Positions 8,115 to 17,271 of a stretch of 64,000 nt of DNA are shown here, in pieces. The DNA lies in assembly GCF_048403405.1 (NCBI RefSeq), contig NZ_CP183129.1, one strand, 5' to 3'. Made by a program: the position numbers and the translations under genes. How positions within the stretch are numbered: the stretch's first letter is position 1; each line of letters starts with the position of its first letter. The notes under the pieces were generated by a model. It was given only the letters and a program-made list of their open reading frames with translations, did not search any database and was not told the origin of the DNA. This DNA comes from Escherichia coli (GTDB lineage Bacteria > Pseudomonadota > Gammaproteobacteria > Enterobacterales > Enterobacteriaceae).

Positions 8115-8186
8115 AATATTATGTTAACGGCATGTATATCATTTGGGGTTGCGATGACGACGAACACGCATTTTAGAGGTGAAGAA

Positions 8187-9871
8187 TTGAAGAAGGTTTG
8201 GCTTAACCGTTATCCCGCGGACGTTCCGACGGAGATCAACCCTGACCGTTATCAATCTCTGGTAGATATGTTTGAGCAGTCGGTCGCGCGCTATGCCGAT
8301 CAACCCGCGTTTGTGAATATGGGGGAGGTGATGACCTTCCGCAAACTGGAAGAACGCAGTCGCGCGTTTGCCGCTTATTTGCAACAAGGGTTGGGACTGA
8401 AGAAAGGCGATCGCGTTGCGTTGATGATGCCTAATTTATTGCAATATCCGGTGGCGCTGTTTGGCATTTTGCGTGCCGGGATGATCGTTGTAAACGTTAA
8501 CCCGTTGTATACCCCGCGTGAGCTTGAGCATCAGCTTAACGATAGCGGCGCATCGGCGATTGTTATCGTGTCTAACTTTGCCCACACTCTGGAAAAAGTG
8601 GTTGATAAAACCGCCGTTCAGCACGTAATTCTGACCCGTATGGGCGATCAGCTATCTACGGCAAAAGGCACGGTAGTCAATTTCGTTGTTAAATACATCA
8701 AGCGTCTGGTGCCGAAATACCATCTGCCAGATGCCATTTCATTTCGTAGCGCCCTGCACAACGGCTACCGGATGCAGTACGTCAAACCCGAACTGGTGCC
8801 GGAAGATTTAGCTTTCCTGCAATACACCGGCGGTACCACTGGTGTGGCGAAAGGCGCGATGCTGACTCACCGCAATATGCTGGCGAACCTGGAACAGGTT
8901 AACGCGACCTATGGTCCGCTGTTGCATCCGGGCAAAGAGCTGGTGGTGACGGCGCTGCCGCTGTATCACATTTTTGCCCTGACCATTAACTGCCTGCTGT
9001 TTATCGAACTGGGGGGCAGAACCTGCTTATCACTAATCCGCGCGATATTCCTGGGTTGGTAAAAGAGTTAGCGAAATATCCGTTTACCGCTATCACTGGC
9101 GTTAACACCTTGTTCAATGCGTTGCTGAACAATAAAGAGTTCCAGCAGCTGGATTTCTCCAGTCTGCATCTTTCCGCAGGCGGAGGGATGCCTGTTCAGC
9201 AAGTGGTGGCAGAACGTTGGGTGAAACTGACTGGACAGTATCTGCTGGAAGGTTATGGCCTGACCGAGTGTGCGCCGCTGGTCAGCGTTAACCCGTATGA
9301 TATTGATTATCATAGCGGTAGCATCGGTTTGCCGGTGCCATCGACGGAAGCCAAACTGGTGGATGACGACGACAACGAAGTACCACCGGGTCAACCGGGT
9401 GAGCTTTGTGTCAAAGGGCCGCAGGTGATGCTGGGTTACTGGCAGCGTCCGGATGCTACCGATGAAATCATCAAAAATGGCTGGTTACACACCGGCGACA
9501 TCGCGGTGATGGATGAAGAAGGATTCCTGCGTATTGTCGATCGCAAAAAAGACATGATTCTGGTTTCCGGTTTTAACGTCTATCCCAACGAGATTGAAGA
9601 TGTCGTCATGCAGCATCCTGGCGTACAGGAAGTCGCGGCTGTTGGCGTACCTTCCGGCTCCAGTGGTGAAGCGGTGAAAATCTTCGTAGTGAAAAAAGAT
9701 CCATCGCTTACCGAAGAGTCACTGGTGACTTTTTGCCGCCGTCAGCTCACGGGCTACAAAGTACCGAAGTTGGTGGAGTTTCGTGATGAGTTACCGAAAT
9801 CTAACGTCGGAAAAATTTTGCGACGAGAATTACGTGACGAAGCGCGCGGCAAAGTGGACAATAAAGCCTGA
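8187..9871 (+). pseudogene. fadD: long-chain fatty acid-CoA ligase, interrupted by a -1 frameshift in this sequence
   Basis: TTG at 8187 reads [14 protein letters not shown]…FIELGG then hits a stop at 9060; the next frame continues [23 protein letters not shown]… to 9871; one base missing after the G6 run at 9011-9017; the two parts total 561 codons. Confidence 0.85.
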
Positions 9872-9940: not shown

Positions 9941-11068
9941 TTGAATTACCAAATGATTACCACGGACGATGCGCTGGCTTCTTTGTGTGAAGCCGTCCGT
10001 GCCTTTCCGGCGATAGCCCTGGATACTGAATTTGTTCGTACGCGCACCTATTACCCGCAACTGGGTCTAATTCAACTTTTCGATGGCGAGCATCTGGCGC
10101 TAATTGATCCTCTCGGGATCACCGACTGGTCACCGCTGAAAGCGATCCTGCGCGATCCGTCCATCACAAAATTTCTCCATGCAGGCAGTGAAGATCTGGA
10201 AGTGTTCCTCAATGTCTTTGGCGAATTACCACAACCCCTGATTGACACGCAAATCCTTGCTGCCTTCTGCGGACGCCCGATATCATGGGGTTTCGCTTCC
10301 ATGGTGGAAGAGTATTCCGGCGTTACGCTGGACAAGAGTGAATCGCGCACCGACTGGCTGGCCAGACCGCTGACCGAACGTCAGTGTGAATACGCAGCGG
10401 CGGATGTCTGGTATCTGTTACCGATCACCGCAAAGCTTATGGTAGAAACGGAGGCCTCCGGCTGGCTACCTGCGGCGCTGGATGAATGCCGCCTGATGCA
10501 AATGCGTCGTCAGGAAGTCGTTGCACCGGAAGATGCCTGGCGTGATATCACCAATGCCTGGCAGTTACGCACACGCCAACTGGCCTGTCTGCAACTGTTA
10601 GCCGACTGGCGACTGCGCAAGGCGCGGGAGCGCGATCTGGCGGTGAACTTTGTCGTGCGCGAAGAGCATTTGTGGTCGGTAGCGCGTTATATGCCGGGAA
10701 GTTTAGGCGAACTGGACAGCCTGGGCTTATCCGGTAGCGAAATCCGCTTTCACGGTAAAACGCTGCTGGCGCTGGTGGAAAAAGCGCAGACATTGCCGGA
10801 AGAGGCCTTACCGCAGCCGATGCTTAACCTGATGGACATGCCGGGTTATCGTAAAGCGTTTAAAGCGATTAAGTCGCTGATTACTGACGTGAGCGAAACG
10901 CACAAGATCAGCGCCGAATTGCTGGCATCGCGTCGGCAAATCAACCAACTGCTGAACTGGCACTGGAAACTGAAACCGCAGAACAATTTGCCGGAGCTGA
11001 TTTCCGGCTGGCGTGGTGAGCTGATGGCGGAAGCATTACACAATTTATTGCAGGAATATCCGCAGTAA
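9941..11068 (+). CDS. rnd: ribonuclease D
   Basis: 375-aa ORF beginning at TTG 9941 (MNYQMITTDDALASL…); DEDD 3'-5' exonuclease and HRDC domains. Confidence 0.93.
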   Translation: MNYQMITTDDALASLCEAVRAFPAIALDTEFVRTRTYYPQLGLIQLFDGEHLALIDPLGITDWSPLKAILRDPSITKFLHAGSEDLEVFLNVFGELPQPLIDTQILAAFCGRPISWGFASMVEEYSGVTLDKSESRTDWLARPLTERQCEYAAADVWYLLPITAKLMVETEASGWLPAALDECRLMQMRRQEVVAPEDAWRDITNAWQLRTRQLACLQLLADWRLRKARERDLAVNFVVREEHLWSVARYMPGSLGELDSLGLSGSEIRFHGKTLLALVEKAQTLPEEALPQPMLNLMDMPGYRKAFKAIKSLITDVSETHKISAELLASRRQINQLLNWHWKLKPQNNLPELISGWRGELMAEALHNLLQEYPQ

Positions 11069-11074
11069 AATCTT

Positions 11075-11117
11075 CCGAAGCCGGACTGGGCGCACTCAGC
11101 GCCACATCCGGCTTCGG
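11075..11117. terminator. composite palindrome between convergent rnd and yeaX
   Basis: Outer stem CCGAAGCCGGA / TCCGGCTTCGG enclosing inner GGGCGC / GCGCC hairpin. Confidence 0.55.
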
Positions 11118-11121
11118 CAAA

Positions 11122-12087
11122 CTACAAATCCAACACCAGGCGTTTACCCTTCGCGCGCGAACAACAGATCAACATACTTTGCTGGCTGGCACGCTCTTCA
11201 TCGCTAAAATACTGATCCCGATGGTCAGCTTCACCTTCCAGTATTGCCGTTTCGCAGGTTCCGCATACCCCTTCACGACATAAACATTCCACTTTCGCGG
11301 CTTTATTATTTTCAATAACCTGCAAAATAGTCATCTCTTCCGGCACCACAAACTCTTTACCGGAACGGGCAAGCACCAGGGTAAATGCATCGCCGGTTTT
11401 GTCTTCAATCGCAAATTGCTCAAAGTGCAGCGTATCGGCGGCGATGTCCAGATGCGCAGCTTCACTTCTTACAGCTTCAATTAGCGCCTCGGGGCCGCAG
11501 GTATAAACATGTGTGCCAGGTTCGATATCCGCCAATAATCGCGCTAATTCCAGTCGTGTTCCGGTTGATGAATGATGAAAATGAACTTTCTCAGCCTGCG
11601 GATGCTGGACTAGCTCATCACGAAATGCGCAACTTTCTGGATTTCGCGAGCAGTAATGTAACTGCCAGTCGACGTCGCTGTATTGCAACTCTGCCAGGTG
11701 TGACAGGAAAGGGGTGATACCAATACCGCCCGCGATAAACAGATGCTTTCTGGCCGAGGGAATTAGCGCAAACAGGTTATTAGGCGTTGAAATCGTTAAC
11801 CGATCGCCCACTTTTACCTGCTGATGCAAAAAGCGGGAACCGCCGCGCGAGTTTTCCTCCAGTCGAACGGCAATCTGATAACAAGAGGTGTCATGCGGCG
11901 AACTCAGTAGTGAATACGCATTGCTGTACTCGTTATCACCATCGCTCATCTGCACAATGACGTGACTTCCTCCGGTAAACGCAGGTAATGGTTTGCCATC
12001 GGTTGCCACCAGCATGAAGCGTTTCACCTGTTCGGTAAGCGGTTCAACCTGGCTCACCTGTACTTCAAACATTTGATAGTCTGACAT
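11122..12087 (-). CDS. yeaX: carnitine monooxygenase reductase subunit (FMN/2Fe-2S oxidoreductase)
   Basis: 321-aa ORF; C-terminal plant-type ferredoxin cysteines CREGVCGTCE. Confidence 0.9.
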   Translation of the reverse strand: MSDYQMFEVQVSQVEPLTEQVKRFMLVATDGKPLPAFTGGSHVIVQMSDGDNEYSNAYSLLSSPHDTSCYQIAVRLEENSRGGSRFLHQQVKVGDRLTISTPNNLFALIPSARKHLFIAGGIGITPFLSHLAELQYSDVDWQLHYCSRNPESCAFRDELVQHPQAEKVHFHHSSTGTRLELARLLADIEPGTHVYTCGPEALIEAVRSEAAHLDIAADTLHFEQFAIEDKTGDAFTLVLARSGKEFVVPEEMTILQVIENNKAAKVECLCREGVCGTCETAILEGEADHRDQYFSDEERASQQSMLICCSRAKGKRLVLDL

Positions 12088-12142
12088 TGCTGTACTCCAT
12101 CAAAAATCAGCCCAGCGGCGGAAAATACCGCCGCCGATGTCA

Positions 12143-13267
12143 TTAGTCCTTAAACACCTGCGCCAGCAGATTATGGAAGTGGGCGATACCATGTTCGGAA
12201 ATTCCGCTACCGCTACTGTCGGCCATGATGCGCCCCTGGCCACGATAGCCACGCGATTTCAGCCCTTTCTGTACGCTTTCAACCAGACGTAAATCTTCCG
12301 GACGGAACACATCGCGATACCACTCAATCAGCGATTTTTGCTCGTCGGTTAACTCTTCATTGGTGAAGTAAATATCGTAGTTTTGCAGGGTAGTTTCAGA
12401 ATCCACCGGGAATTCATAAATGACCGTCATCATCCCTTTGATCGGGGTGACGTTCAGCATCGTGCACGGCCACAGCCAGAAACCGTGGAATGCCGCATCC
12501 GTGCCCTCTTCGAATTTGAAAGACTGTTCGGACGGTTTGGCGAAACCGTACTGCAGCGTCCAGTTACCGTGCATGGTGTGCCAGTAACGATCAACCTGTA
12601 CGGAGTCGGAGAAACCTGGATGCGCCGGACCACAGTGATAGCACTCGAGATAGTTATCGACAATGTTCTTCCAGTTGGCAGGCGTGCGGGTGGTAAAGCG
12701 GGCCGCCAGTTTCAGATCGTGGACTTCCGGGCAGGCTTCCAGCACTTTCGCCCCCAGACCGGGTAACTGATCTTCTACGCTGGTGGCGTTGGGGTCCATG
12801 TTGATGAAGACGAATCCGGCATATTCTTCCAGACGCACCGGAACCAGTTGCGCTTTGTCGCTATCGAAATTGGCGACGTTTTCGCAGTTACGCGCATGGG
12901 CCAGATTACCATCGAGTTTGAATGCCCAGGCGTGATACGGGCAGGTAATCACATTTTTCGCTTTCCCTTCGCCGCTCAATAACTGATGACCACGGTGCGG
13001 GCAAACGTTATAGAACGCGCGCAAAACCTTATCACGACCACGTACCAGCACGATGCTTTCGCCAATGATCTCACGCGTCACATAATCATTGGCATTCGCC
13101 AGTTCGCTGCTGTGAGCGACGCAAATCCAGCTTTTGGCGAAGACGTTCTCTTTTTCGTGTTCAAAGGCGTTCTGATCGGTATAAAAACGGGCAGGAATGG
13201 TCCACGCCTCTTGCGGGTTAGCGCAAAAATTTTCGGGTAGTACAAAGTCAGGGCTCAGATTGCTCAT
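12143..13267 (-). CDS. yeaW: carnitine monooxygenase oxygenase subunit (Rieske 2Fe-2S)
   Basis: Start taken at MSNLSPDFVLPENF… (374 aa) rather than the 414-aa track ORF; Rieske motif CPHRGH…CPYHAW. Confidence 0.9.
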   Translation of the reverse strand: MSNLSPDFVLPENFCANPQEAWTIPARFYTDQNAFEHEKENVFAKSWICVAHSSELANANDYVTREIIGESIVLVRGRDKVLRAFYNVCPHRGHQLLSGEGKAKNVITCPYHAWAFKLDGNLAHARNCENVANFDSDKAQLVPVRLEEYAGFVFINMDPNATSVEDQLPGLGAKVLEACPEVHDLKLAARFTTRTPANWKNIVDNYLECYHCGPAHPGFSDSVQVDRYWHTMHGNWTLQYGFAKPSEQSFKFEEGTDAAFHGFWLWPCTMLNVTPIKGMMTVIYEFPVDSETTLQNYDIYFTNEELTDEQKSLIEWYRDVFRPEDLRLVESVQKGLKSRGYRGQGRIMADSSGSGISEHGIAHFHNLLAQVFKD

Positions 13268-13298
13268 AGGGTTACCTTTATCGTTAGGATGATGGCGC

Positions 13299-14909
13299 TC
13301 AGTTGTCGCCTTTGAATACGGTTCCCGCAGGGAGCACTGGCGTTTTTTCCGGGGCTTCAACCGGTGTCTGCGGGAGATAATGTTCAACTTGATGAGCCGG
13401 AATGTCGGCGTAATCCTGTTTCAGCCAGCGAATAAAGCCACCGACTTTCACCAGTAAAATAACGAGGAAGGGCAGGGCTGTAAGTACCACAGTGGTTTTC
13501 ATGGTTTCCAGCGACGCGCCAGTAAATAAGATAGACAGTGGAATCAGGGTGATAACCACGCACCAGAACAGGCGAAGAGCACGGTCAGGGTCGTCACCTT
13601 CCTTAAGATTTCGCGTACTGGTCGCCGCCATGGTGTAGGCCACCGCATCCATATGCGAGGCAAGGAAAATAATCATCACGCCCAGGTATGCGGCGAGGAA
13701 CAATTTACCGGCTGGCAACGACATCAGAACTTGCTGCACAGCTGTCTCGCCGCCCAGTGTTTCCAGCACCTGTGGGACGTTGATTACGCCATTGATAAAC
13801 TGGTGAATGGCATAGCTTTCCATTACGCCGAAGAAGAACCAGCAACCGACGGTGCTGCCGAGGATCAGTCCCCAGATAACTTCTTTAATCTTACGACCGC
13901 GTGAAACGCGTGTGACAAACATTGCTACGCCAGGGGTGTATGAAATCCACCACAGCCAGTAGAAAACGGTCCAGTTGCGGGGAAATGAACCATCGCCAAG
14001 CGGATCGGTGAATAAGCTCATTTGCAGGAAGTTTTGCGTGGTCAGGCCGATGGCATTGATGATGCTGTTGGTAATAAATTCGGTTGGACCGACAATCAGC
14101 ACCAGTAATGGCAGCAGGAACGCGCCCCAGCCAACCATTTTGCTCAGACGTTGCAAACCGTTGTTGATACCAATCCACGAGCTTAGGCAAAAAATGCCGC
14201 CGGAAAGCAGGATCACAAATGCCTGCACGGTGAAGTTATCGGGTAAACCGGTCAGCGCGGAAAGCCCACGAGTAAAGGTTGCTGCGGTAACAACAAGGGA
14301 AATGGTCAGCGCACCGACAGTGGCGATCAGGAACATCAAATCGACCAGTTTTCCCCACGGGCCTTGCGGGCGAACGCCGGTAATCGCGGCAATAATGCCG
14401 GAAAGGCTCAGACCTTTGTTTTTCCGCACATGAAAGTGATAAGCCATGATTAATGAGGCCAGCGTATAAGTTGCCCAGGCGCTGATGCCCCAGTGGAAGA
14501 AGGAGTAAGGGACGCTAAATTCGAGTGCCTGTTGTGAACGCGGTGCGATATTTAATCCAGGTGTTTGATAATAATAGGCCCATTCAGCACCCCCCCAATA
14601 AAGCGTAGAAGAACCTAAACCGGCACAAATAAACATAAACAGCCAGGAGAGCGTGCTGTATTCCGGTTTTCCTTCTCCAAGACGAATATTGCCGTATTTA
14701 CTGGTGGCTAAATAAATCACCAGTCCCATTGCCAGCAAAACCAATACCTGTACGGCGGAACCTAACGTACGCGTAACAAAAGTGTATATTGCGTTGGCCG
14801 CGTCGGCCGATTGTTGTGGGAAAAGGCTTAATGCAGCTGCGATGAAAAGAATGGCCACCAGGCTGATGCTTATCAGCGGCACATCTTTTTTCTTAACATT
14901 GCTCATCAT
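13299..14909 (-). CDS. yeaV: BCCT-family transporter (carnitine/betaine type)
   Basis: 536-aa ORF with 12 predicted TM segments, aligns along its length with CaiT-like transporters; exact start codon uncertain. Confidence 0.8.
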
Positions 14910-15113
14910 GAGTCATCTCCTGGGCATAAAAGCCCGTCTCTGGCTTTTGCCAGTTGTAATTATTTGCAGGGTAATGAGTTGCATGTTGTGTTTAACAAAT
15001 TGATTATTTACATGTTACATAAATTAAACAATTAAGAATACGGAAAGCCATAAAACACGAAACGGAAACAATAAAAGGTGAAATGACGCAGGTTATTAAC
15101 TGCAAAGAACGAA

Positions 15114-15140
15114 TAAAAAAACCGCGTCAGTGACGCGGTT
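15114..15140 (-). terminator. intrinsic terminator downstream of dmlA
   Basis: Perfect palindrome ACCGCGTCA-G-TGACGCGGT flanked by A7 on the plus strand (U-tract on minus). Confidence 0.8.
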
Positions 15141-15159
15141 CAAATAAACTGGTTTGACC

Positions 15160-16245
15160 TTAACGCAAAATAATTTTGCAAATCGCGTCGGCAACCTGTG
15201 GCGTGGTGGCATTGCCTTTCATATCAGGTGTTTTCGGCCCGTGAGCAATCACTTCTTCAATCGCGGCCAGAATACCGTTATGCGCTTGCTGGAAACGCTC
15301 ATCGCCATTGCCGAGAAAATCGAGCATCATTGCACCGGCCCAAATTGTGGCGATAGGGTTAGCAATGTTTTTCCCGTAGATATCCGGCGCGGAACCGTGG
15401 ACTGGCTCGAAGAGCGACGGGAAAGTGCGTTCCGGATTCAGGTTGGCGGATGGGGCAATGCCAATGGTGCCGGTGCAGGCCGGGCCAAGATCGGAAAGGA
15501 TATCGCCAAACAAATTGGACGCCACTACCACATCGAAGCGTTCCGGCTGCATCACAAAACGCGCGCAGAGAATATCAATATGCTGCTTGTCCCAGCAGAT
15601 CTCCGGGTAATTCTCGGCCATTGCTTCCACTCGCTCATCCCAGTACGGCATGCTGATGGCTAAACCGTTCGATTTAGTGGCAGAAGTTAGCGTCTTACGT
15701 GGGCGGCTTTGCGCAAGTTCGAAGGCATAACGCAAAATGCGATCGACACCACGACGCGTAAATACCGATTCCTGAATGACGACTTCATGCTCTGTACCTT
15801 CATTCACTCTGCCGCCGAGCGAGGAATATTCGCCTTCGGTGTTTTCCCTGACCACGTAAAAATCGATGTCGCCAGGCTGTTTTCCCGCCAGCGGGCAGGG
15901 AACGCCAGGAAAGAGACGAACCGGGCGCAGGTTGACGTACTGGTCGAATTCACGACGAAATTTCAGCAGCGAACCCCACAACGAAATATGGTCCGGAACG
16001 GTGTCCGGCCAGCCGACGGCACCAAAATAGATGGCGTCGAAACGGCTAAGTTGCTCATGCCAGTCGTCCGGCATCATTTTACCGTGATGGCTGTAATACT
16101 CGCAGCTCGCCCACTCCATTTGCTCAAAACTCAAGGCGAAGCCCCAGCGCTCAGCGGCAGCCTGTAACACGCGAATCCCTTCAGGAAGGACTTCTTTGCC
16201 AATCCCGTCTCCCGGGATCGCAGCAATACGCATCGTTTTCATCAT
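15160..16245 (-). CDS. dmlA: D-malate / 3-isopropylmalate dehydrogenase (decarboxylating)
   Basis: 361-aa ORF, isocitrate/isopropylmalate dehydrogenase family (MMKTMRIAAIPGDGIGKEV…). Confidence 0.92.
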   Translation of the reverse strand: MMKTMRIAAIPGDGIGKEVLPEGIRVLQAAAERWGFALSFEQMEWASCEYYSHHGKMMPDDWHEQLSRFDAIYFGAVGWPDTVPDHISLWGSLLKFRREFDQYVNLRPVRLFPGVPCPLAGKQPGDIDFYVVRENTEGEYSSLGGRVNEGTEHEVVIQESVFTRRGVDRILRYAFELAQSRPRKTLTSATKSNGLAISMPYWDERVEAMAENYPEICWDKQHIDILCARFVMQPERFDVVVASNLFGDILSDLGPACTGTIGIAPSANLNPERTFPSLFEPVHGSAPDIYGKNIANPIATIWAGAMMLDFLGNGDERFQQAHNGILAAIEEVIAHGPKTPDMKGNATTPQVADAICKIILR

Positions 16246-16347
16246 TGGGTTCTCACTTCCTGACCATCAAAATTGACAACATCACCATCCTATAATTGAC
16301 TGAAAAGGAATTAATCCCTGTAACTGGTGAAACATAAAACACGAATC

Positions 16348-17271
16348 ATGAATAATTTACCGCTGCTGAACGATTTGCGCGTCTTTATGCTGGTGGCTCG
16401 CCGGGCTGGTTTTGCCGCCGTGGCGGAAGAACTGGGCGTTTCTCCAGCGTTCGTCAGCAAGCGCATCGCCTTGCTGGAGCAAACGCTAAACGTGGTGTTG
16501 TTACACCGCACCACCCGCCGTGTCACCATTACCGAAGAAGGAGAGCGGATTTATGAATGGGCGCAGCGGATTTTGCAGGATGTCGGTCAAATGATGGACG
16601 AACTTTCTGACGTGCGTCAGGTGCCGCAGGGGATGCTGCGTATTATCAGCAGCTTTGGTTTTGGACGACAGGTGGTGGCCCCGGCGTTATCAGCGCTGGC
16701 GAAGGCGTATCCGCAACTGGAATTACGTTTTGATGTGGAAGACCGGTTGGTCGATTTGGTCAATGAAGGTGTCGATCTCGATATTCGCATTGGCGATGAT
16801 ATCGCCCCTAATTTAATCGCCCGCAAACTGGCGACCAATTATCGCATTCTCTGCGCGTCACCGGAATTTATTGCGCAACATGGCGCGCCGAAACATTTAA
16901 CCGATCTTTCTGCATTGCCGTGCCTGGTCATTAAAGAGCGCGATCATCCTTTTGGTGTCTGGCAATTACGCAATAAAGAAGGCCACCATGCGATTAAAGT
17001 TACCGGCCCACTGTCGTCTAATCATGGAGAAATTGTCCATCAGTGGTGTCTTGATGGGCAGGGGATTGCTCTGCGCTCCTGGTGGGATGTTAGCGAAAAT
17101 ATTGCCAGTGGTCATTTAGTGCAGTTGCTACCGGAATATTACCAGCCAGCGAATGTCTGGGCCGTTTATGTTTCAAGGCTGGCGACGTCAGCGAAAGTGC
17201 GGATAACGGTAGAATTTTTACGCCAGTATTTTGCCGAGCACTACCCGAATTTTTCACTGGAGCATGCCTGA
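16348..17271 (+). CDS. dmlR: LysR-family transcriptional regulator
   Basis: Track ORF from 16327; start taken at MNNLPLLNDLRVFMLVARR… (307 aa); divergent from dmlA. Confidence 0.88.
   Translation: MNNLPLLNDLRVFMLVARRAGFAAVAEELGVSPAFVSKRIALLEQTLNVVLLHRTTRRVTITEEGERIYEWAQRILQDVGQMMDELSDVRQVPQGMLRIISSFGFGRQVVAPALSALAKAYPQLELRFDVEDRLVDLVNEGVDLDIRIGDDIAPNLIARKLATNYRILCASPEFIAQHGAPKHLTDLSALPCLVIKERDHPFGVWQLRNKEGHHAIKVTGPLSSNHGEIVHQWCLDGQGIALRSWWDVSENIASGHLVQLLPEYYQPANVWAVYVSRLATSAKVRITVEFLRQYFAEHYPNFSLEHA

Follow-up and report, generated by a model that had tools for sequence, protein, structure and literature searches.

What do the three minus-strand genes yeaV, yeaW and yeaX of Escherichia coli do together, and is a yeaV of 536 codons a peculiarity of one strain or the normal form of the gene? 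These questions are raised by a 64,000-nucleotide stretch of the E. coli chromosome (NCBI RefSeq assembly GCF_048403405.1, contig NZ_CP183129.1), called the window throughout, in which the gene order is fadD-rnd / yeaX-yeaW-yeaV-dmlA / dmlR-leuE. An earlier note, made from the letters alone, had read the locus as a BCCT transporter, a Rieske oxygenase and a ferredoxin-type reductase converting carnitine to trimethylamine (TMA), and had suggested that a 32-residue tail of YeaV beyond the end of CaiT-like proteins may reflect a strain difference or start/stop variation. The list of open reading frames (ORFs) confirmed that the three genes lie on the minus strand and together span exactly positions 11122-14909, and that the coordinates and the count of 536 codons in that note are all correct. 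We conclude, with a probability of roughly 85%, that the locus represents, in E. coli, the cluster for aerobic cleavage of carnitine and that the 536-aa YeaV is its normal, ancestral form. The window copy is a known, biochemically characterised operon in ordinary full-length form and is in itself nothing new; the only genuine variation in a YeaV terminus is a 5' deletion in other strains, the K-12 reference included.

Evidence for the assignment comes from YeaW, a Rieske oxygenase of group V, which matches the Pfam families Rieske and Ring_hydroxyl_A far beyond chance and aligns over its whole length with the crystallised Acinetobacter baumannii oxygenase CntA (6Y8J; E 9e-197, 73% identity). 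The 19 residues compared were those to which the CntA structure paper (PMC7948474) gives a role in binding cofactor or substrate, and all 19 are identical in YeaW. The Rieske [2Fe-2S] ligands C89/H91/C109/H112 correspond to C86/H88/C106/H109 of CntA in a CxH...CxxH arrangement, and the motifs CPHRGH and CPYHAW that the earlier note had recognised occupy YeaW residues 89-94 and 109-114. The bridging residue E208 corresponds to E205, and the mononuclear iron ligands H211/H216/D325 to H208/H213/D323. Likewise identical are the Cys206/Cys209 pair of CntA, its carnitine-pocket residues Y203, Y225, F258, N270, Y295, Y315 and F319, which form the quaternary-amine pocket, and its F216 and F247. The YeaW of the window has no amino-acid difference from that of K-12.

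YeaX, which differs from its K-12 counterpart at 6 residues, contains the Pfam domains FAD_binding_6, NAD_binding_1 and Fer2. It matches phthalate dioxygenase reductase (2PIA) over its full length with an E-value of 4e-57, as well as the reductase domains of self-sufficient P450s, again over the full length. Its C-terminal plant-type [2Fe-2S] domain, with the cysteines arranged as C270-x4-C275-x2-C278...C308, follows the part binding flavin mononucleotide (FMN) and NAD(P)H. Purified E. coli YeaX has been reported to contain FMN and a plant-type cluster, and purified YeaW to contain Rieske and mononuclear iron centres; the two proteins are active in vitro, as judged by carnitine- and O2-depletion assays and by formation of TMA from carnitine, with E208 as the bridging residue (PMC9508527). 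The docking residues published in the same study (R83, K104, K117 and E330 of YeaW; R271, K313 and D320 of YeaX) are all present in the window proteins. The carnitine-cleaving function of yeaW and yeaX is therefore already published and well supported, and the functional reading of the earlier note is borne out by homology, by conserved catalytic residues and by published biochemistry.

In the mechanism that we propose, YeaV would import a trimethylammonium substrate, most likely L-carnitine. YeaX would take electrons from NAD(P)H via FMN and its [2Fe-2S] cluster of the plant type and deliver them to the Rieske cluster of trimeric YeaW, from which they would pass across E208 to the adjacent protomer's mononuclear iron. 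Once activated, O2 would then hydroxylate C4 of carnitine, and the product would split into TMA and malic semialdehyde. The latter would be oxidised to D-malate and converted further to pyruvate and CO2, with dmlA and dmlR as members of the same ancestral cluster and with the malic-semialdehyde dehydrogenase gene, which in other genera lies between cntA and cntB, lost in the Escherichia lineage. Both a linked D-malate dehydrogenase gene (dmlA; TIGR02089, 563 bits versus a cut-off of 470) and a linked LysR regulator gene (dmlR) are present in the window, as in the Acinetobacter-type cluster; a linked malic semialdehyde dehydrogenase gene is absent between yeaW and yeaX of the window, where there is a 55-nt spacer only. 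The conserved cluster is wider than the three-gene unit of the earlier note and takes in dmlA and dmlR. The ratio of non-synonymous to synonymous substitution rates (dN/dS) is 0.02-0.11 for yeaV, yeaW, yeaX and dmlA, a sign of past purifying selection on the intact genes.

The identity and the length of YeaV were established by profile searches and alignment. Residues 14-499 match positions 3-485 of the 485 in the BCCT profile PF02028 (E 4e-121; 405 bits versus a cut-off of 27), and residues 1-536 match positions 1-536 of the 536 in the NCBIfam YeaV equivalog NF007412 (1028.6 bits versus a cut-off of 647). The yeaV start codon is the ATG at 14909, with a tandem ATG at 14906, and the stop codon occupies 13299-13301. 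The Prokaryotic Genome Annotation Pipeline (PGAP) annotation of strain 4621 gives the three coding sequences at exactly equivalent positions, and the 1611-nt yeaV is annotated likewise in genomes almost identical to the window. A yeaV start called too far upstream was considered and rejected, since orthologues align from residue 1, the Shine-Dalgarno (SD) sequence is conserved and the match to the BCCT profile begins at residue 14. In the multiple alignment the last residue of CaiT, D504, pairs with D502 of YeaV, so that the tail noticed earlier is real and comprises 34 residues rather than 32, the latter being simply 536 minus 504. Its first ~10 residues (I/V-P-A-H-x-I/V-E) are conserved among orthologues and the remainder is Pro-rich and variable. 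Orthologues of 532-548 aa were found in Klebsiella, Citrobacter/Salmonella, Serratia, Yersinia, Pseudomonas and Cupriavidus (97-100% query coverage). They share the N-terminal start MxSNxKKDV, align from residue 1 and all run past the CaiT end, the tail drifting in sequence and length after the I/V-P-A-H-x-I/V-E motif. K-12 YeaV aligns to window residues 56-536 with 475/481 residues identical (99%), uses the same stop codon and has one Pro/Leu substitution in the tail. The chains of the matched structures are 502-527 aa for DddT and 539-606 aa for the BetP constructs. Variable cytoplasmic C-terminal extensions are common in the BCCT family, and the tail of YeaV is a family trait of this usual kind. 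The alignment of the YeaV termini to reference orthologues, which the earlier note had named as the check, thus gave the same C-terminal stop and a normal full length, and the idea of a strain difference or stop variation in the tail has to be abandoned. Start variation does exist, in the opposite sense to that supposed: the window is full-length, and it is K-12 and BL21(DE3) that carry a 5' deletion.

This deletion removes 225 bp, made up of 96 nt of 5' leader with the AGGAG SD sequence and of yeaV codons 1-43, encoding the first transmembrane helix (TM1); its register is ambiguous by 1 nt (a T). The annotation of K-12 MG1655 starts yeaV at an internal TTG, codon 56, and gives it 1446 nt (481 aa). 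A hydropathy scan placed the first two hydrophobic segments of YeaV at residues ~7-35 and ~47-73, so that a protein starting at that TTG would lose the first of them and the initial part of the second. The deletion junction of BL21(DE3) is identical to that of K-12, and the yeaV of BL21(DE3) is marked by PGAP as a pseudogene 'missing N-terminus'. Within the 481 codons left in K-12 yeaV there is neither a stop codon nor a frameshift, and TM1 and TM2 lie outside the ten-helix core of the BCCT fold; the truncated K-12 YeaV is not necessarily inactive. The K-12 deletion starts within an invariant intergenic block, AAATAAT. Slippage between two copies of TTTGTTA was considered as its origin and rejected, the junction being a single 225-bp loss with 1 nt of microhomology. 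The gut commensal SE11 has an intact 1611-nt yeaV and is entered as TMA-positive from carnitine in a methods review. No earlier description of the K-12 yeaV truncation was found in the portion of the yeaV literature examined.

To place the window among other strains, 5,426 complete E. coli genomes were searched with the 4.15-kb stretch 11000-15150, for which 5,425 gave a match, at least a partial one; the closest genomes are 1 base apart from the window over this region. At least 80% of the locus is present in 4,367 genomes, and a 224-nt segment characteristic of the intact form in 2,930 (~54%), the difference of ~1,437 (~26%) corresponding to the K-12-type deletion. All the deletion-class matches sampled span exactly 3,926 nt, which equals 4,151 minus 225. 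A 62-nt query across the K-12 junction was unusable as a direct count because half-matches from intact genomes passed the E-value limit and were joined, although the spread of its matches is still consistent with ~1,400 deletion carriers. The deletion allele was found in isolates from humans, dogs, pigs, chickens and river water, which makes it a natural polymorphism, and the alignment of outgroup orthologues from residue 1 makes full-length yeaV the ancestral state. The locus is absent from ~1,059 genomes (~20%; for example ST131), which match only its rnd end. In the one ST131 genome examined (NZ_OX637961.1, 7137-7611, rnd-leuE), dmlR-dmlA-yeaV-yeaW-yeaX have been lost together in one piece, and all that is left of them between rnd and leuE is 156 nt of dmlA and 168 nt of dmlR. 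The deletion would be expected to belong to phylogroup A, and loss of the locus to B2.

Smaller differences were also seen in yeaV. In strain BS-04 (NZ_CP172819.1, 1851564-1851837) the two halves of the K-12 junction are 274 nt apart, not 287, which points to one more length variant, of 13 bp, in the 5' region of yeaV. Codon 107 of the window yeaV (14589-14591) encodes Gly, whereas Val stands at this position in the nearest genomes and in every orthologue aligned. The substitution, T to G at 14590, lengthens a G6 run to G7, and the residue sits two positions before the conserved Glu109. The exact 61-mer around Gly107 occurs in 10 complete genomes only, from unrelated-looking strains, and either a recurrent mutation associated with the homopolymer or an error of sequencing may account for the variant.

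Several points weigh against reading the locus as a working carnitine pathway in E. coli. Strains BL21, B and K12 fail to grow on carnitine, and carnitine monooxygenase activity was not detected in BL21 extracts (PMC11353897), so that a physiological role in E. coli is a supposition; from its negative results the same study suggests that in E. coli the cluster may have another function. No carnitine transport assay of YeaV was found in the literature, and untargeted metabolomics of K-12 yeaV strains, in which the truncated allele was used, reported many shifted metabolites with carnitine one among them. At the level of expression, the strong hairpin and U-run between yeaW and yeaX mean that the three genes may not form a simple single transcript, and a scan with the sigma-70 consensus gave no promoter upstream of yeaV, calling in total no more sites than in shuffled sequences. 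As for the non-growing strains, the comparison covered K-12 MG1655 and BL21(DE3), and both carry the deletion allele. The text of PMC11353897 is without "truncat" or "pseudogene", uses "deletion" solely for the mdh gene and leaves a yeaV deletion unmentioned. The association of the deletion allele with the lack of growth is a correlation only, and the missing msadh gene could explain it equally well.

Four other explanations were weighed against these data. That the 536-codon length and the tail are a strain peculiarity, produced by a mutated stop or a mis-called start, might be supposed from the 504 aa of CaiT, whose alignment ends at YeaV 502, and from the 481-aa annotation of K-12 YeaV. It is highly improbable, given that K-12 has the same stop and tail, that six other genera have proteins of 532-548 aa with shared termini, that NF007412 is matched end to end, that the AGGAG SD sequence 7 nt from the ATG is conserved across genera, and that the K-12 length difference is accounted for by its 225-bp deletion. 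It also seems unlikely that YeaV acts in the manner of CaiT, as an ion-independent exchanger of substrate and product rather than as an ion-coupled importer. CaiT (PDB 2WSX, 3HFX), an L-carnitine/gamma-butyrobetaine antiporter, has the BCCT fold in common with YeaV and is among its closest solved relatives (E 1e-71, after DddT at E 3e-99), and its whole aromatic box (W142, W147, Y150, W323, W324 and Y327) and E111 are kept in YeaV. However, the identity is only 28%, the CaiT equivalog model NF002887 gives YeaV 352 bits, below its cut-off of 541, and R262 and M331 of CaiT are V259 and V328 in YeaV, with Val in all aligned YeaV orthologues. In CaiT these two residues replace the coupling ions and confer Na+/H+ independence. 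Because both are Val in YeaV and its orthologues, ion-coupled import is the favoured reading; judged by its sequence, YeaV is not a CaiT. The products of the enzyme, a volatile amine and an aldehyde, would moreover offer no obvious betaine as counter-substrate. An Acinetobacter homologue of YeaV, Aci1347, has been described as a carnitine transporter (PMC11353897).

The other two alternatives concern the substrate and the fate of the pathway. YeaW is sometimes described in the literature as an enzyme targeting gamma-butyrobetaine, and CntA has been crystallised with carnitine as well as with gamma-butyrobetaine bound (PMC7948474), so one may ask whether gamma-butyrobetaine or another trimethylammonium compound, rather than carnitine, is the physiological substrate in E. 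coli. We consider this improbable: the pocket residues of YeaW are identical to those of CntA, the CntA orthologues including that of E. coli show no significant differences in substrate specificity (PMC9508527), and the adjoining D-malate dehydrogenase suits a product of L-carnitine, whose 3-hydroxyl gives D-malate (PMC11353897 and stereochemical reasoning). A more serious competitor, though still the less probable account, is that the E. coli cluster is a decaying remnant that does not support growth on carnitine and at most trims intracellular pools of carnitine or butyrobetaine, the 5' deletion in the K-12 lineage and the disappearance of the whole cluster from B2 strains being later stages of this decay. 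It would fit the absence from Escherichia of the aldehyde dehydrogenase gene (Aldedh) that lies between cntA and cntB in Klebsiella, Citrobacter and Pseudomonas, the ~26% of genomes with the 225-bp deletion, the ~20% without dmlR-dmlA-yeaVWX except for the 156- and 168-nt remnants, the failure of BL21, B and K12 to grow on carnitine, and public expression data in which there is no substantial transcription of cntA (PMC11353897). Against decay stand the intactness of all genes in the window and in ~54% of genomes, the dN/dS of 0.02-0.11, the high in vitro activity of the enzyme (PMC9508527) and the strong conservation of the dmlA-yeaV control region across genera. Furthermore, the non-growers include the deletion-allele strains K-12 and BL21(DE3), so that these negatives do not test the intact form, and an unlinked aldehyde dehydrogenase could substitute for the missing one, GabD being 62% identical to the Acinetobacter enzyme (PMC11353897). 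An intact aerobic carnitine-cleavage cluster in the window is the explanation that we prefer.

A bolder proposal, which we put forward tentatively and regard as rather unlikely at present, is that a strain's ability to induce the operon and to import carnitine for aerobic formation of TMA depends on the 225-bp segment, in which a conserved control region lies together with the leader, the SD sequence and the TM1 codons. If true, the negative growth and activity results from laboratory strains would reflect a broken allele and not the species, and the yeaV allele (intact, 5'-deleted or absent) would predict the TMA output of gut E. coli better than the presence of cntA/yeaW alone. The locus matters as one of the two principal ways in which bacteria turn dietary carnitine into TMA, the precursor of trimethylamine N-oxide (TMAO), which is linked to cardiovascular disease, and cntA sequences amplified from human stool are dominated by E. 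coli. The 481-aa K-12 YeaV on which databases, knockout and overexpression collections and transporter screens rely is the 5'-truncated deletion allele, and an intact allele such as that of the window is advisable for studies of YeaV function or of strain-level TMA formation.

The intergenic regions of the locus contain further elements, whose coordinates are collected with those of the genes in Table 1. The dmlA-yeaV intergenic region (14910-15159) is conserved across Escherichia, Citrobacter and Klebsiella far more than synonymous sites are. Its invariant blocks, TTTATT.TTTCCGTT..GTGTTTTAT and TTGTTTAATT.ATGT....AAATAAT...TTGTTAA, are candidate regulator or promoter sites, and a reading of these conserved blocks leads us to propose a -35 element TTGTTT and a -10 element AATAAT (~15031-15003) as a putative yeaV promoter. 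The yeaV SD sequence is closely preceded by two small hairpins (14940-14953 and 14922-14935). Although yeaV is named in a list for CRP obtained by systematic evolution of ligands by exponential enrichment (SELEX), inspection by eye only gave no convincing match to a CRP site upstream of yeaV. A scan of 10900-16500 against Rfam found no family, with one sub-threshold chance match on the dmlA terminator. The spacers between the genes are 31 nt for yeaV-yeaW and 55 nt for yeaW-yeaX, and the hairpin in the latter is terminator-like, with 10 pairs (-26.2 kcal/mol, z = -4.7). In other genera the corresponding position upstream of cntB also holds a GC-rich hairpin, but a different one; in a covariation test each genus had its own hairpin, and the cross-genus alignment was unreliable. 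The yeaW-yeaX hairpin may attenuate expression of the reductase or stabilise the upstream mRNA.

Table 1. Positions of genes and other features of the carnitine-cleavage locus in the window.
Feature	Position	Strand	Description
yeaX (= cntB)	11122-12087	-	321-aa reductase; ORF, Pfam, 2PIA match
yeaW (= cntA)	12143-13267	-	374-aa carnitine monooxygenase oxygenase subunit; ORF, 6Y8J match
yeaV	13299-14909	-	536-aa BCCT-family transporter, 12-TM type; ORF, Pfam, NCBIfam
YeaV C-terminal cytoplasmic tail (residues 503-536)	13302-13403	-	Alignment beyond the CaiT end
225-bp segment	14781-15005	-	Present here, deleted in K-12 MG1655 and BL21(DE3); DNA alignment
Shine-Dalgarno AGGAG	14917-14921	-	7 nt upstream of yeaV ATG; conserved in Escherichia, Citrobacter and Klebsiella
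GC-rich hairpin, then U-run	12112-12137	-	yeaW-yeaX spacer, just before the yeaX SD (GGAG)
Intrinsic terminator hairpin after dmlA	15119-15141	-	Conserved across genera; sets the yeaV transcription unit apart from dmlA
Long inverted repeat GCCGAAGCCGGA...TCCGGCTTCGG	11075-11118	.	Between convergent yeaX and rnd; sequence reading; probable bidirectional terminator
dmlA	15160-16245	-	Decarboxylating D-malate dehydrogenase, directly upstream of yeaV; counterpart of Acinetobacter mdh
dmlR	16348-17271	+	Divergent LysR-type regulator; counterpart of Acinetobacter carR

As to gene calls, the mechanical ORF of yeaW extends upstream to a TTG at 13387, and its 374 aa are counted from the ATG at 13267. 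The neighbouring rnd (9941-11068) is an ORF of 375 aa from a TTG, with the same 1128-nt length as in the K-12 annotation; PGAP gives it 1116 nt (371 aa) in strain 4621, a discrepancy in start-codon annotation between pipelines. Compared with strain 4621, the next gene, fadD (8121-9871), has lost one of the seven Gs of a run (9011-9016), which breaks it into two ORFs, 8121-9062 and 9056-9871. Its exact sequence is shared by only 1 of 5,385 complete E. coli genomes, and the split is either a private frameshift inactivating the long-chain acyl-CoA ligase or a homopolymer sequencing error. In BL21(DE3) (NC_012971.2, 43967-45675), yeaR, three genes from dmlR, is interrupted by the IS4-like element IS421.

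Comparison with known systems places the locus within a family of related clusters. K-12 MG1655 has the same locus in the same gene order (b1801-b1803), without the 225 bp, and its YeaV lacks TM1 and part of TM2. The carnitine cluster of A. baumannii consists of carR, mdh, the BCCT gene (bcct) Aci1347, hyd, cntA, msadh and cntB, and converts carnitine to TMA and malic semialdehyde, which is turned into D-malate and then into pyruvate and CO2 (PMC11353897). Five core genes, arranged in the same order, are common to this cluster and to that of E. coli. The oxygenase of A. baumannii is 73% identical to YeaW, its reductase has the same domain layout as YeaX, and its BCCT protein is similar in length to YeaV; a D-malate dehydrogenase and a divergent LysR regulator are present likewise. 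Unlike A. baumannii, E. coli is without hyd (acylcarnitine hydrolase) and msadh (malic semialdehyde dehydrogenase), in agreement with the published listing of its orthologues as carR (dmlR), mdh (dmlA), bcct (yeaV), cntA and cntB, with hyd and msadh absent (PMC11353897). In Klebsiella, Citrobacter and Pseudomonas the clusters comprise LysR, Iso_dh, BCCT, Rieske, Aldedh and reductase genes, with order and gene sizes as in E. coli and with BCCT proteins of 532-535 aa that are 63-87% identical to YeaV; the LysR gene has the same position in all related loci, and the dmlA-bcct control region is conserved in the enterobacterial clusters. These genera keep an aldehyde dehydrogenase of ~482 aa between oxygenase and reductase, where E. 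coli has only its 55-nt spacer, the 3' part of which can be aligned with the spacer between aldh and cntB of Klebsiella. In an Escherichia-like genome the gene set is that of E. coli, lacking Aldedh and adjoining rnd-fadD.

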